From the NCBI GenBank assembly GCA_964106915.2, contig OZ066926.1: a stretch of 64,000 nucleotides of DNA. One strand, written 5' to 3'. The notes beneath the pieces are model-generated. The model searched no databases, was not told the DNA's origin, and saw only the letters and a list, made by a program, of their open reading frames with translations. Positions 8,801 through 18,454 of this stretch are shown here, piece by piece. The position numbers and the translations under genes are program-made. Origin of the DNA: Podarcis gaigeae (lineage: Eukaryota). Within the stretch, counting starts at the first letter, position 1; the number at the start of each line of letters is the position of its first letter.

Positions 8801-11800
8801 TACACTCTAGGAATGTTGTCATTGACTGCTCCTGTGTTTACATCCCACATAAAGAAGGAGAAACAACAGTTCCTCAAAAAAAATGCAGAGTTCCATATTT
8901 TTCACTCTCTTGGAAATAATAAGCAACAGCAATGCTCCAAGGTAATGATTTTCCAACTGTATTTGAGGGACCCAGGAGTTCCTCAGTGAAGAGATCAGGA
9001 CTGGTGGGTAAGCTTCCTTCAGAGAGAATTTGCCCACCATGGCCAACTGTTCATTGCAATATGCAAAACATACTGTAGATGTACTCTGTGTATGTTTTAG
9101 GGAGCACCACCACATCTGATGACTGTGAGACCCACTGAAACCAGATGTGCTCTGTGGAACAATTAAATGTAAAAACCGTTCCCTGAATGGAAAAGGTTTT
9201 TAAATGTCTGATGGAGAGATCACTCACCTGTATGCTTCGTTGCCCCTTTCTGAGTCCCAAACCACCTCTGGCTCTATTGGGCCAGCTGCCTTGAGTGGAG
9301 TTTGATCCAAATCTGTAAAAGGAAGACAATTATTTGCCTGATGACTGTTGCAAGGAGGAAGTTAGGTGAACTGCCCTTGAAGTTTAAGAACTCGAAGTCA
9401 AACTCACCATGCATTGCAGATAGCAGAATCAGAATGGTACCTGGATGTGCCATTTCTACACATTCCAGGAACCTGCAACAAGATTGCTCCCCTCTTTCCT
9501 GGATTATACTCAGCAATTTTTCACTTTTTAAAATTTTCAACATTTCGCAAATGTCTCTGTATTCTTTCAGAGTGATGACATAGAAATAGTATAGCACATC
9601 TACAAAATGTTCAATATCCGGTTCAAGAATTTCCATTAATTGTTTTCTTCCCTTGCAGATCATCTCATTACTAGAGATTGTGGATCTTTCCAATGACCTG
9701 TGGCAGAAATATTTATTTTATTTAGGTGACAGAAGGCGGGGAGAGGAGAATTAGAACATAGTTAGGATGCAGACTGCTCCCTTACCATAAATGCCAATGA
9801 GGGTCCTTTGGCCAACCCACCAATAATTTTCTTCTGGGGACACAACCCCTCAATATTTTCTCCCCACCACTGCCCACCCACCTGCCTTCCCATCTCCCTC
9901 CCTTGGTTTGCTGTCTACCCCCAGCCAAGCATCACTCTCTGTTTCTGGCTTTCCTCCAGGAGGAGCAAAGTGGGACATAGCAGTGGGGGGGATGGTGGAT
10001 GTGAGTGTGTGGTTTGTGTGTGTCTGTCTCCTACCTGGCTTCCCATCCCTCCATCAATTGCTAGCTCCCTCTCTCTGTGTGGCACCCTCTTGCAGTGGGG
10101 ACAGCCTCCACCCAACCTACCATGGTGGCAGCCTGAGCAAAGTTGAGCATGCCTGGCCAGTGGGTGATGACAGGCATGGGCAAGGCAGATGCCTGGCTGA
10201 GAGGAGACAGCTGACGTAGGGACAGAGGGAGGCAGAGCAAGCACCCTGGCCGTGCTGCAAACACCAACACCGACTGCCTACACTCAATGCAGCTCCCTGG
10301 GTGCACACTGGCCTGACACCAGACTTAGTGCAGCAAGGGGGTGGGGGCAGGGGAAGTAGGCAGGCCTGCCCCACCCATATTTTGTTTAAGTTGGCGCCAC
10401 TGTCTCTCACACGGAATCAAACTGTTGGCCCACCTAAATTCATAGTATCAACATGTTATGATGAAACTATGCTCATTTGTCATATTATGATGAAATTGCT
10501 TTTGTAGTGTTTGAAATTGGCTTATGGGTTGCCCTCTAGCCTCCCCCCACCTCAGGATTGCCTCAAGTTTATGTGAACCATACCACTCCTTGCTGTGGTC
10601 CTTTCCTTCAACCCTCCCCCAATCTTTGGGTTCCCTGCCCCCTAGGGGTTCTTTCCCCCCAAACAAATTCCAATCCTTACCGTGCCCTCCCATCTTGTCC
10701 CTCCATGGGGCGGGAGTGAGATGATAATCCCAGCCAAGCTATCCTGACTCTGAGCCATTCACTGATGACCACTTTGTCCCCCAAGCAACTGGAAAGTTCC
10801 CTGCCCTCAGACCAGCTTAATGTGACATACAGGGCTGGAGGGTTAAAGGTCTTTCAGATACAAAGAGTCATTTGCTGGGGAGGCTCTAGCTCTTGGTTTC
10901 CTGCTTCAAGCAGCAGCTGGACTAGAATAGATGGCCCACTGAGTTCCCTCCAAGTCTGTTATTCTATGACACAGGCAGGATACCTGCAGCCAGTGGACCA
11001 CAGGTAGCCCTCGGATGCACTCCCTGGGGCCTTCCAAGGCCTATGGAGCCCTGCCTCCATCCCCCAGCTGCTAAGCCTTTAAAGTATCTGGCAACCTGCC
11101 AGCATCAGTGGAAAATATACACTTTGGTTTTCCTGCCCAATGGTTGACGCAGAAAGTGGGAAAGGTCCAAAATAGCAATTTTCAAAGTATTTTTTCCCCA
11201 AGCAGGGGCACACACACACATTTATTAAATTAGTGCTAAAGCATTTTTGTTTCAAGCAGGAAAGCTTGTATTGTTTTAAGATTAATGGATTTTACGTTTG
11301 TTTTGGATTGGAAGGGTTAGCTGAGAGGGGAAAACATTGGTATAATTGTAGCTAAAGTGGTGGCTTCAGTCAATTATATAAGTACAGAAATTACCCTTTG
11401 GTGGCTTTTTCTGATGGAACCAGTTCCTCCAGAGCTTGATTAATTTTTGACGACAAGAATTCAGCTGACCGGTGCCTTGAAACATGCATTTTGCAAAGTC
11501 GCTCTGCTGCTAGATATTGAGAAAGTGAGTGCATGTCAACAGCTTTACTGAGTCCTTGCCGCTTTCTACATATTTTTAACCATTATTTGGCACTGACACA
11601 CAAATTTGGCATTGTATTGCATGAAAGACAGCATTGGTATAGAAAGGATTCACTTCCGTCTCATACAGGTCAGTCTGCCATTTTGGGTGACCTAAATCTT
11701 AATGTGGAATGCATACTTCTTTCCAACACTATTTTGGCTGTTAATGTCATGGGTGACATACTGACGACACAAAGGCAGACAATACCAACAAGAAAGAAAA

Positions 11801-16714: not shown

Positions 16715-18454
16715 CCTGCTCAAGAAGCAGTCCCGTCAGACTTACCCAGTGTTCTCCCTTCTAAGTTCCTTACCTTTCCTGGTGAAACAAGAGCGACATT
16801 CTGGCACTGGCTCACAGTCAAAGGCTTTCATCACCTCTGAGGCCACTTCCACAGCATAATCCTCATCGCAGTATGCAAGAAGCAGTTCTGTGAGCTCCCA
16901 AGCATTTGCTTCAACCAGCAGCTCCCTGGGGATACTGACATAGCCTTCCTTGACGGGGAACTTGCTGAGTTTGACCTTGAACTTCTTCAGATCTGACTCC
17001 TTCAATGTATTCAGTGTGGCCAGCAGGCATAATTGTGTAATCTGCACTGTGGTGATTATTGATGTTAGTAGAAGTATTGAACAGAAAAATCCAGCACTCC
17101 TACATTCCCCTTCTCTTCCTGTTGGAGCACAATGAACAGGCAGCACTTTCAGACTGGACTAAGTAGGGAAGGGCTGTGGATTTGTAGTAGATCACATGCA
17201 TGCAAAGGATCCCAGGTTTAATCCCTGGAGGATCCAGAAAGGGCTTGGAAAGATTCCTGCCTAAATCCCTGGAACAAACTAGATGGACCCAGTGGCCCAA
17301 TGTGTCCTAAGGCAGCTTCCCATCCTTCTAGCCTCTCAGGTGATTGAAGGAGCTCAGCCTGGCCCAGAAGAGAGAAACTGATCCAGGAGGGTTTGAAGAC
17401 TCTCTTAACTTACAGGCCTCTTCTTAACACTTTGCAGGCGTCTACGTTTATTTCCCACCCTGTTTCTGATGTTCCTTCTTCCCTGGTGGGGAGCGGATGC
17501 CGTGTAGTGTTTTGCCTCAGGTGCTAACATGTCTTGGGCCAGCCCTGGTTTAGATGGAGGGCAGAGGGGTGTGGGAAGATGTCACCTCACTTTACACAGG
17601 GAAGATTTACATCCATCATTCCACTCACTTTCACCCTGGACCTCCACCCCCCCACTCCCGGAATTCGGGTCTTTTCTCCTGCTCTGGAGGCTAGGACTCC
17701 AGGCAATGGCTTCAAGTTGCAAGAAAGGAGATTCCAGCTAAACATTTGGAAAAAGCTTCTGACAGTAAGAGCTGTTCAGCAGTGGAACAGACTCCCACAA
17801 GAGGTGGTGGACTCTCCTTGGAGATTTTAAAGAAGAGGTTGGCCATCTGTAATGGATGCTTTAGCTGAAATCTCTAAATTGCAGATGTCCGTTGCGGTCC
17901 CTTCCAACTCTTAGATTCCATGATTCTTTGGAATGTTGCCCAGGAGGATATGCGACTCTCCTGCTCGAAAGGTTTCCCCACCCAAGGAGGAAGGCAACCA
18001 TGGGAAGGAGCTGAGCTCTCGGTACTGAGAGAACCCGCGAGGCGTCAGCACCATCAGTCGGATCGAGCCCCCGCCCCGCTCCCAGTCCCTTACTTTGCCA
18101 GGTGATACCCGAGGGATCGTCCACCGGCGGATTGTAGTCCATCGCCTTCAGCACCAGGGCCGTCACCTCCACAGCATAAGCCTCACCGTAGTAGCTGAAC
18201 AGCAGGTCTACGAGCTGCAAAGGCATGGCTTCCTTGAGCAACTCCTCGGAGATTCTTCTGACGCCCTCCTTGACCGGGAATCTGAGCAGTTCGCGCTGGA
18301 ATTTCTCCCACTCTCCCTCCCCCTCCTTCAACTCCAAAAAGATGTCCAGAAGGAGGGAACTGGCGGATTGCAGATTCGGGTTCTCAGGATGTAAGAAAAT
18401 GAGGCCACGCGACAGATTTGTGGAAAAGAAGAACTTCGTCCCCATTGCGCTCAT
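2573..18454 (-). CDS. Gene A: PYD-PYD-CARD-FIIND-PYD protein (NLRP1/CARD8-related, no NACHT/LRR), ~725 aa, 11 coding exons
   Basis: GT-AG exons 18454-18094, 17046-16746, 9697-9408, 9312-9228, 7190-6967, 6362-6118, 5088-4966, 4831-4690, 4575-4525, 4235-4166, 2858-2573. Phases chain without a stop; total 2178 nt. The join 16746->9697 across a 7-kb TE-rich intron is the least certain. Confidence 0.75.
3041..3661 (+). mobile_element. Solo LTR
   Basis: TGTGGGA...TCCCACA termini with 5-bp TSD TTCAT. Strand is given as reference orientation only. Confidence 0.8.
4690..5088 (-). CDS. Gene A UPA exons (5088-4966, 4831-4690)
   Basis: [16 protein letters not shown] and ELKFQYLD...EIVWEAHLK match the UPA C-terminal half. 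Confidence 0.9.
6118..6362 (-). CDS. Gene A FIIND autoproteolysis exon (ZU5/UPA boundary)
   Basis: [33 protein letters not shown]...FHLYLLPND, equivalent to NLRP1 AHF...ENPSF|SPLG...FHLYLIP. Confidence 0.93.
6420..6672 (+). mobile_element. Sauria SINE, 5'-truncated
   Basis: cctgccaacctagcagttcgaa...gtcctttacc body and tail. Confidence 0.8.
6967..7190 (-). CDS. Gene A FIIND ZU5 exon
   Basis: EAGSFRCGDTDL...[12 protein letters not shown]...VAGPLLNIK...AIHVPHFLCL matches the NLRP1/CARD8 ZU5 pattern; 224 nt, as in paralogs B and C. Confidence 0.92.
7513..7715 (+). mobile_element. tRNA-derived squamate SINE (Squam3-like)
   Basis: A/B-box-like head followed by gggtgaccttgggctagtcac...ccgctttgagactcct. 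Confidence 0.6.
8298..8849 (-). mobile_element. Same LTR family, inverted copy
   Basis: Reverse-complement similarity to 3041-3661. Confidence 0.7.
9408..9697 (-). CDS. Gene A CARD-like exon upstream of FIIND
   Basis: RKQLMEILEPDIEHFVDVLYYFYVITLKEY...KLLSIIQERGEQSCCRFLECV fits a CARD helix pattern. cag|G acceptor, G|gtgag donor; paralogous exon at 47686-47391. Confidence 0.75.
11790..15850 (+). mobile_element. Two degraded L1-clade LINE ORF2 fragments with small MITE insertions
   Basis: NYRPISLLNMDYKI, KAFADD, LSLWGRISVIKM and CWKC...GTFYHMWWTCP motifs; many stops. Confidence 0.88.
15925..16500 (+). mobile_element. CR1 LINE fragment
   Basis: gaaaaggatctaggggtcttagtggac...tttagcctggaaaagaggagactgagaggagatatgata. 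Confidence 0.8.
16746..17046 (-). CDS. Gene A exon 2: PYD
   Basis: LLATLNTLKESDLKKFKVKLSKFPVKEGYVSIPRELLVEANAWELTELLLAYCDEDYAVEVASEVMKAFDC. Phase-1 acceptor; donors at 16773 and 16745. Confidence 0.8.
17670..17925 (+). mobile_element. CR1 3' fragment
   Basis: NGFKLQERRFQLNI...LTVRAVQQWNRLP ending in gattccatgattct. Confidence 0.75.
18094..18454 (-). CDS. Gene A exon 1: divergent PYD
   Basis: LLLDIFLELKEGEGEWEKFQRELLRFPVKEGVRRISEELLKEA...LVDLLFSYYGEAYAVEVTALVLKAM. CpG-rich 5' region, ATGs at 18454 and 18445, donor A|gtaagg. Confidence 0.8.

Follow-up and report, generated by a model that had tools for sequence, protein, structure and literature searches.

What are three death folds doing in front of a FIIND that has no NACHT? 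The question is raised by a stretch of 64,000 nucleotides from Podarcis gaigeae (assembly GCA_964106915.2, contig OZ066926.1), here called the window, which lies at G000:C25:16678001-16742000. On its minus strand, gene A encodes a protein of about 753 amino acids with the order PYD-PYD-linker-CARD-ZU5/UPA-PYD. The explanation that we favour, with a probability of roughly 0.4, is that gene A would be a tripwire whose N-terminal folds are predicted to serve as bait for pathogens. It has two parts. Judging by its relatives, gene A is probably a CARD8-like functional-degradation sensor, with self-cleavage, functional degradation and recruitment of ASC. Given that functional degradation holds, the anatomy of the protein leaves an even chance that the N-terminal folds are integrated baits.

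The model of gene A has 12 exons (Table 1), AG/GT at all introns and about 753 codons with no internal stop, and the proteins of the window match Podarcis RefSeq models with up to 98% identity. The initial annotation had predicted a PYD-PYD-CARD N-terminus, and all three folds are confirmed by Pfam, with the CARD of exon 4 (E 1.8e-6) above the cut-off of 23.9 bits; the Pfam FIIND and UPA matches cover exons 6-9. It had also taken these exons to run in frame into ZU5, which holds for the full exon chain but not for PYD2 joined directly to the CARD: the donor of PYD2 (exon end 16774) is in phase 1 and the acceptor of the CARD (9697) is in phase 2. Splicing one straight to the other is ruled out, as it gives a frameshift and a stop at amino acid 223, and therefore a further exon of 115 nucleotides (exon 3) is needed, which restores the frame.

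Splice joints were read in the contigs of four RNA-like runs from one study ("RNA" being the guess of the tool), and our statements concern the joints listed there, 48 further rows being out of view. All seven consecutive joints from exon 1 to exon 8 (18094 to 5088) are seen. Four of them have canonical ends in each of the four runs and two have canonical ends in two runs, while the joint between exons 2 and 3 was found in a single run, in a second mapping at lower likeness; a further canonical joint, 4574/4689, is seen in three runs. Because these joints link exon 1 through exon 8, the exons at 18454 and 17046 are not a PYD-only transcript unspliced to the exon at 9697, the outcome that the initial annotation had considered fatal to it. 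The raw-read runs X21 and X22 have zero cover on exons 2-3, which has no bearing on expression, and among the data sets listed as containing the stretch none is recorded as RNA. What connects the C-terminal PYD to the rest is the reading frame, the splice sites and RefSeq models from Zootoca and from P. raffonei, P. muralis and P. lilfordi (for exon 12: P0011, P0003, P0016, P0010 and P0007), so of the four death folds said to surround one FIIND three are spliced on and the fourth is attached by these other means. The architecture as a whole is matched by RefSeq models in P. raffonei, P. muralis and Zootoca, where such proteins already stand as uncharacterised. Some RefSeq isoforms from two genera (P0001, P0002, P0013, P0014) put the gene A N-terminus in front of a FIIND-CARD lying downstream, or continue beyond the PYD into a CARD; P0001 and P0013 splice on to the downstream CARD, by annotation only. 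These isoforms may be switchable outputs or mapping artefacts.

We found no NACHT-sized exon in 9408-18454, in agreement with the initial annotation. Apart from the frame of exon 1, the longest stop-to-stop frame there has at most 193 codons. In the genome there are at least 14 NACHT matches. Eleven of the 14 fall within open frames that are 563-636 codons long, and C25, the contig of gene A, has none of the 14. A hidden NACHT exon is ruled out by these frame lengths and match positions, and Pfam finds neither NACHT nor LRR in the orthologue P0011.

The residues required for FIIND self-cleavage have been described (PMC3210808). In the alignment of exon 7, the equivalents of human NLRP1 H1186, F1212 and S1213 and of CARD8 H270, E279, F296 and S297 are all kept: the His lies at 6333-6331, the Phe at 6255-6253 and the Ser at 6252-6250, and the cut is predicted between Phe and Ser. 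The residues that follow the Phe are SS in gene A and SP in NLRP1. In both NLRP1 and CARD8, degradation removes the N-terminal fragment, and it is the C-terminal one that signals (PMC7483925). Because the N-terminal folds of gene A are spliced to the ZU5 side of a FIIND with the His, Phe and Ser of the cleavage site, they would lie on the degraded fragment; this much of the initial proposal, which had suggested that they could be decoys, baits or autoinhibitory modules, is borne out.

Following the example of NLRP1 and CARD8, the FIIND of gene A would cut itself between F486 and S487, and the N-terminal folds would be the sensor input. A microbial attack on them would direct the N-terminal fragment to the proteasome; the UPA-PYD, once free, would nucleate ASC and recruit caspase-1. 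The degenerate PYDs would mimic the pyrin domains of ASC and NLRP proteins and the CARD would mimic a giant GTPase, both as integrated baits, and the paralogs of gene A would represent a shuffled bait set on interchangeable FIIND backbones. Bait fits best because the folds derive from defence proteins, their signalling surfaces are lost, their copy number varies and their cassettes are exchanged.

Where does the CARD come from? A search of the genome with exon 4 gives seven matches, namely six FIIND paralogs (gene A included) and one exon at 16412991, 270 kb off, which is 40% identical to exon 4 and heads a URGCP/giant-GTPase gene. Among 15 database relatives of this gene, 10 contain the URGCP family and 7 carry GVIN1-like or URGCP-like names, which are RefSeq labels and do not establish orthology to human GVIN1. 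Mammalian CARD6 and ARC/NOL3 are more distant relatives of the exon 4 CARD. In the CARD tree, rebuilt with 8 near-duplicate rows removed and 8 rows added, the N-terminal CARDs of the FIIND genes form one clade (support 100/100) inside the squamate giant-GTPase CARDs (97/90). An origin from ASC or from the C-terminal CARDs is ruled out (approximately unbiased test, p = 0.00024).

The gene structure tells the same. The donor gene has a CARD that ends in phase 1, a 118-nucleotide exon (phase 1 to 2) and a second CARD (phase 2 to 1), which is the pattern of gene A exons 2-4. Comparing gene A with the donor by blastn gives 67.8% identity over 335 nucleotides across exon 4 and its flanks (E 1e-23, shuffle z 23.9) and 79.5% over 39 nucleotides at the donor site of exon 3 (E 0.001, shuffle z 4.8); both matches are collinear and extend into introns. 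We were not able to detect the small exon of the donor with a protein profile of the linker, for which the link is by DNA and phase only. As far as sequence can tell, the CARD of gene A is not of the ASC type and is homologous, together with the linker, to exons of the giant-GTPase gene. Since phases, intron-reaching collinear matches and tree nesting agree, a two-exon genomic block was most likely copied into a FIIND gene before the split of lacertids and amphisbaenians, and the nesting points to copying from the giant GTPase to the FIIND gene. The bait idea thereby gains a concrete candidate target.

The donor is a CARD-CARD-URGCP giant GTPase gene at G000:C25:16405464-16429185 (+). It has a frameshift near 16424850, which may be a true lesion or an assembly error, and is followed by a partial duplicate that is broken. 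Just downstream stand two ASC-like PYD exons, both intact (G000:C25:16432116-16434810, +). A turtle model, P0035, has a PYD joined to URGCP, and in the Zootoca models P0065, P0067 and P0068 the same CARD family is fused to a GIY-YIG domain.

The captured CARD could also have kept its old company. In this guard or adaptor role, which we consider unlikely, it would make CARD-CARD contacts with the giant GTPase of the host (or with a CARD6/NOL3-like protein), and gene A would be carried to GTPase-coated microbes or degraded with its client, the signal still being the freed UPA-PYD. Such a role would fit a CARD whose fold is kept (predicted local distance difference test score, pLDDT, of 79-90 in the model of the orthologue P0011) and whose ratio of nonsynonymous to synonymous substitution rates (dN/dS) is 0.34-0.74 in nine older paralog pairs. 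It would also fit the nearby donor gene and the co-captured linker, which is more conserved than any other part of the protein: against Zootoca, 38 of its 39 residues are identical (p = 0.005 relative to the folds), 38-39 of 39 when three lacertid orthologues are compared, and the motif is also kept in Rhineura. On the other hand, the CARD stem branch after the capture is long (0.45-0.5) and the identity to the donor is only 40%, so the homotypic surface may be gone; the donor copy of this genome is frameshifted, and a guard role leaves the PYD array unexplained.

The N-terminal PYDs form a separate clade (100/98), loosely allied with the ASC-like and C-terminal PYDs (94/79), in a tree from which one identical row was dropped. 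We scored five core positions of the type-I interface (E13, D48, D51, K21 and R41; residues from PMC9254735). In gene A, PYD1 keeps none of the five charges, PYD2 three and the C-terminal PYD all five. The mean over 23 N-terminal PYDs is 2.0, over six C-terminal PYDs 4.2 and over three ASC-like PYDs 5.0, in a comparison whose p-value overstates the difference, the rows being related by descent. Identity to Zootoca is 80% (189/237) for the N-terminal folds and 90% (198/221) for UPA plus the C-terminal PYD (p = 0.004). Because the ASC type-I charges are lost and the divergence is faster than in the C-terminal part, the N-terminal folds look non-signalling.

The structural evidence comes from AlphaFold models of the orthologue P0011 (mean pLDDT 65, with a poor UPA) and the paralog P0004. 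In the former, the N-terminal folds are three helical bundles (pLDDT about 76-90), and Foldseek matches ZU5 to the FIIND of rat NLRP1 (template modelling (TM) score 0.81), the PYDs to ASC and the CARD to the CARD of ARC (TM 0.90, root mean square deviation (rmsd) 1.1 Å, E 0.074); a structure-cluster search of the CARD gave clusters scoring below 0.9, which is a lead only. The helix-6 region of both PYD1 and PYD2 is rich in Pro and is coil in both models. The idea that both N-terminal PYDs are without helix 6 held only in part: for P0004, Foldseek aligns 94-97 columns to whole PYDs (rmsd 1.7-2.0 Å), and a displaced helix, with low pLDDT there, may complete one of them. The domain check that the initial annotation had called for thus returns the Pfam folds and, in the orthologue and paralog models, the helical bundles, together with a UPA modelled at low confidence.

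PYD2 keeps all four basic type-I positions and two of the six acidic ones, the one-sided pattern of a cap. In a different use of the N-terminal folds, somewhat unlikely in our view, they would cap the C-terminal PYD or ASC filaments, in the manner of PYD-only proteins, or control how stable the N-terminal fragment is, and what actually triggers the sensor would be DPP9 inhibition or proteotoxic stress. Autoinhibition of this kind would agree with the non-signalling N-terminal PYD of human NLRP1, whose destabilisation activates the sensor (PMC7483925), and with the N-terminal linkers that bind the C-terminal fragment in NLRP1 and CARD8 (PMC11760013), and gene A, being without the Ser-Pro new N-terminus of NLRP1, may need some other brake. 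Yet in Rhineura the members that have 4-5 N-terminal PYDs carry a CARD at the other end, so that the PYDs are unmatched to the output domain; a CARD of the giant-GTPase type is unlikely as a cap for ASC, and fast divergence fits a fixed intramolecular partner poorly.

The surroundings of gene A show how variable this front end is. In 464 kb surveyed, ten tandem FIIND genes on the minus strand (G000:C25:16597000-16806000) lie between ASC-like PYD-CARD genes. Six have a full N-terminal CARD exon of the giant-GTPase type, one a fragment of it, one a PYD only and two no fold, the fullest N-terminus being PYD-PYD-linker-CARD; at the C-terminus there is a PYD in five, a CARD in four and, in one, no death fold that we could find. 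Among the 30 FIIND relatives compared, the number of N-terminal PYDs across lacertoids goes from 0 to 5 (0-2 in lacertid models, 4 or 5 in Rhineura), with either PYD or CARD at the C-terminus. For example, Rhineura P0039 and P0042 have 5 and 4 PYDs followed by linker-CARD-FIIND-CARD, and PYD-linker-CARD-FIIND is common to lacertids and this amphisbaenian. All ten FIINDs of the cluster group with those of Rhineura (100/100), in a tree without a named CARD8 orthologue. Backbones exchange their N-terminal cassettes, because the proportion of synonymous differences (pS) between gene A and its downstream neighbour is 0.12 for the folds but 0.31 for the FIIND together with the last PYD (p = 7e-6).

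Gene B, the neighbour of gene A, ends in a CARD and lacks PYD and CARD exons in the stretch from its ATG to its FIIND, as the initial annotation had noted. The homology that it had seen between the CpG-rich 5' regions of the two genes is confirmed as well (18740-18434 against 28638-28357, 69.7% over 320 nucleotides, E 1.9e-38), and the observed/expected ratio of CpG is raised in both (0.62 and 0.75, against 0.31 for the window). The FIINDs of genes A, B and B2 form one clade (100/100), and because that of gene B nests inside fold-bearing paralogs, gene B likely lost its N-terminal folds. Its CARD differs from that of the ASC-like gene at 16557 kb by a dS of 0.10, which suggests a recent exchange of CARD exons.

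Several points weigh against the tripwire with baits, and the first of them concern the molecule. The joints between exons 8 and 9, 10 and 11, and 11 and 12 are not among the listed joint rows, and contigs run unspliced through intron 11. The joint-bearing contigs are short, probably come from another Podarcis species or population and may include cross-mapped paralogs; joints from such contigs do not phase one gene A molecule. Some RefSeq models are split: Zootoca P0019 has the last exon as a PYD-only protein, P. lilfordi P0010 begins at the end of the CARD exon, and P. muralis P0004, from a neighbouring paralog, stops after the CARD. Taken together, these could mean that, for the most part, separate transcripts encode the N-terminal cassette, the FIIND and the last PYD, and that the four-fold protein is a product of annotation. 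We find this hardly credible in view of the seven joints described above, a frame that is open over 12 exons, and full-length models in two genera.

The second group of points concerns selection. We were not able to show positive selection on the N-terminal folds among the paralog pairs of this one genome: pooled pN, the proportion of nonsynonymous differences, is 0.117 and pS is 0.116, and this equality fits relaxed constraint equally well. In addition, no N-terminal fold is present in genes B and B2, whose frames remain open. The larger CARD tree has one fork of giant-GTPase, CARD-only and CARD-GIY-YIG squamate proteins with the exact sister unresolved; given such company, the CARD exon is mobile across squamate genes and its capture may have no special meaning. 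The folds would then be neutral baggage, that is, phase-compatible death-fold exons shuffled at the PYCARD/giant-GTPase locus and tolerated on a disposable fragment, and gene A would work as gene B does, or would never cleave. Further support for this comes from a paralog that has lost the cleavage Ser, and from a dN/dS near 1 (pN equal to pS in the folds) in the youngest paralog pair. What makes it quite improbable is that PYD-linker-CARD-FIIND has been kept in lacertids and Rhineura, that none of the six full N-terminal CARD exons in the genome has a stop, that dN/dS is below 1 in older pairs, and that the linker is strongly conserved.

Finally, the first Ser of the SFS motif (equivalent to CARD8 S295) is a Lys in gene A, which may affect cleavage; the only giant-GTPase copy found in the genome has a frameshift in its large exon; and in the literature examined we found no microbial effector reported against the CARDs of GVIN or CARD6.

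Table 1. Features of the window discussed in the text; runs are the four RNA-like runs, and each joint is given as a pair of positions
Feature	Position	Strand	Evidence and remarks
Gene A, exon 1: start codon (ATG) and degenerate PYD1, donor in phase 1	18094..18454	-	Pfam PYRIN 42.6 bits; joint 17046/18094 in 4/4 runs
Exon 2: PYD2, phase 1 to 1	16774..17046	-	Pfam PYRIN 57.7 bits; joint 11509/16774 in 1/4 runs; basic face kept, E13 and D48 equivalents missing
Exon 3: linker exon of 115 nucleotides, phase 1 to 2	11395..11509	-	frame; joint 9695/11393 in 4/4 runs; homologous to small exon ahead of giant-GTPase CARD
Exon 4: CARD of CARD-URGCP/GVIN-like type (CARD6/NOL3-related), phase 2 to 1	9408..9697	-	Pfam CARD 28.3 bits; nested among squamate giant-GTPase CARDs in tree
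Exon 5: short linker into FIIND	9228..9312	-	joint 9312/9408 in 4/4 runs, 7190/9228 in 2/4
Exon 6: ZU5, first part	6967..7190	-	Pfam FIIND 82.4 bits; joint 6360/6965 in 4/4 runs
Exon 7: end of ZU5, start of UPA	6118..6362	-	alignment to human NLRP1 and CARD8; joint 5087/6117 in 2/4 runs
Exon 8: UPA	4966..5088	-	Pfam UPA-FIIND piece; frame
Exon 9: end of UPA	4690..4831	-	Pfam UPA-FIIND piece; joint 4574/4689 in 3/4 runs
Exon 10: linker	4525..4575	-	joint 4574/4689; 12-exon frame
Exon 11: linker	4166..4235	-	frame, AG/GT; agrees with RefSeq orthologues; joint not among listed rows
Exon 12: C-terminal ASC-like PYD, predicted signalling domain	2577..2858	-	Pfam PYRIN 83.4 bits; core type-I charges; RefSeq models; joint not among listed rows
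Broken remnants of a long interspersed nuclear element (LINE) inside intron 2, no NACHT	11824..15512	+	tblastn with LINE open reading frame from same region
CpG-rich 5' region of gene A, homologous to that of gene B	18434..18740	-	match to 28638-28357
Gene B: short N-terminus, FIIND, ASC-type C-terminal CARD	22889..28640	-	Pfam, exon survey; P. lilfordi P0047 matches the N-terminus
Gene C: PYD, giant-GTPase-type CARD (47685-47392), FIIND, C-terminal PYD	35071..51930	-	exon order only

A number of further observations were made around these genes. Three ASC-like PYD-CARD genes, one of them with a partial CARD, flank the cluster (G000:C25:16557230-16572263 and 16811468-16814505), and PRY-SPRY and VWA exons come after it; in mammals, TRIM72 and integrin alpha follow PYCARD, and the surroundings of the cluster fit the PYCARD locus. 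A third PYD-PYD-CARD paralog (G000:C25:16647126-16647374) is likely uncleavable, because it has Tyr for the cleavage Ser, and two other paralogs have Leu for Phe. The C-terminal PYD exons at window 58635-58904 and G000:C25:16781583-16781852 share the same DNA sequence over 88 codons, which points to duplication or conversion in the very recent past. Broken remnants of ZU5 exons lie downstream of genes B and A (window 22296-22620 and 1415-1540), just before the 5' region of the next gene. A repeat of about 620 nucleotides has two copies, at window 3027-3660 and 8263-8849, of which the first is probably a polymorphic insertion, since it is skipped in the contigs of all four runs. Elsewhere in the genome there is a divergent single FIIND gene (G000:C9:81482570-81483408), with no NACHT frame within the 50 kb read, which is possibly the CARD8 orthologue. 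In the Elgaria model P0069, FIIND-PYD is preceded by two CARD-like domains and followed, perhaps because of read-through, by a giant-GTPase-type CARD. The turtle CARD8-like models P0054, P0055, P0060 and P0061 have a ubiquitin-like domain before the FIIND, another candidate for an integrated domain.

How far has this been described? The Podarcis FIIND locus, with one member having an N-terminal pyrin domain, was noted by Billman et al. 2024 (PMC11258412), who also report "guard like" BIR-FIIND proteins in Xenopus; in the available part of that paper we found no PYD-PYD-CARD-FIIND-PYD protein, no origin of the CARD and no analysis of the cluster. The literature that we searched, which leaves out most subscription papers, gave no description of the gene A architecture or of the CARD capture. 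For an integrated decoy, the postulates are that a single surface of the effector recognises target as well as decoy, and that this recognition is both required for activation and enough to cause it; vertebrate receptors of this kind were an open question until 2026, and decoys for other host proteins have been predicted (PMC13037943). Such a decoy, in the form of mouse NLRP1B, is established by Chung et al. 2026; it works by surface mimicry, the pathogen being a mismatched one, and CARD8 becomes sensitive to an effector when a foreign N-terminus is fused to it (PMC13037943). By its sequence, gene A would qualify as a sensor with a domain homologous to another host defence protein, the mark of an integrated decoy. 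The defence role of the reptile donor is taken from human GVIN1, an antibacterial coat protein on intracellular bacteria (bioRxiv 2025.03.24.645074; the word CARD is absent from the part of the text available).

If the baits are real, this front end would be a rare animal parallel to plant decoy receptors, and it would point to an undescribed host target of microbes. The two exons traceable to a giant-GTPase gene would sit on the exact fragment whose destruction fires the alarm, and gene B, nearly bare and with a closely related FIIND, adjoins gene A as a natural control; for this reason, the idea of a decoy at the level of whole domains is directly testable. It is doubtful that one can go further and see in the lacertoid FIIND genes a modular platform of integrated decoys at the PYCARD locus, in which interchangeable FIIND backbones with PYD or CARD output would receive, by swapping, 0-5 defanged PYDs and a block of two exons taken from a giant GTPase of the interferon type. 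If true, it would be a domain-level decoy family in a vertebrate, parallel to domain integration in plant NLRs, and it would predict that microbes antagonise both ASC and GTPases of the GVIN type. Should the folds have no bait function, an NLRP1-like role would still have been rebuilt without NACHT, with both the input and the output domains exchanged.

By analogy, gene A works like CARD8 or NLRP1, but it falls outside the defining tests of both. With human CARD8 it shares a FIIND without NACHT, the His, Glu, Phe and Ser, and the missing Pro after the cleavage Ser; on the other hand, the N-terminus of CARD8 is a disordered tract where gene A has three folded death domains, and its output is a CARD where gene A, one of ten tandem paralogs, has a PYD that would depend on ASC. 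A CARD8 with a C-terminal PYD, as in gene A, is known from anole (PMC11258412). Human NLRP1 has, like gene A, a FIIND and, as is likely for gene A, a non-signalling PYD on the degraded fragment and functional degradation, but it carries NACHT, LRR and a C-terminal CARD, whereas gene A has neither NACHT nor LRR, ends in a PYD and has two PYDs at its N-terminus. In mouse NLRP1B the decoy is a surface patch of the NACHT that mimics gasdermin, whereas the putative decoy of gene A is a whole domain from a host gene (PMC13037943). The reptile CARD-URGCP/GVIN1-like giant GTPases and mammalian CARD6 have the CARD family, exon phases and flanking intron DNA in common with gene A, which holds the linker and CARD exons only and no GTPase. 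Plant NLRs with integrated domains, such as RRS1-WRKY, likewise combine a sensor with a copied host domain (PMC13037943); there the scaffold is an NB-LRR, while in gene A it is a FIIND and the decoy role is predicted.

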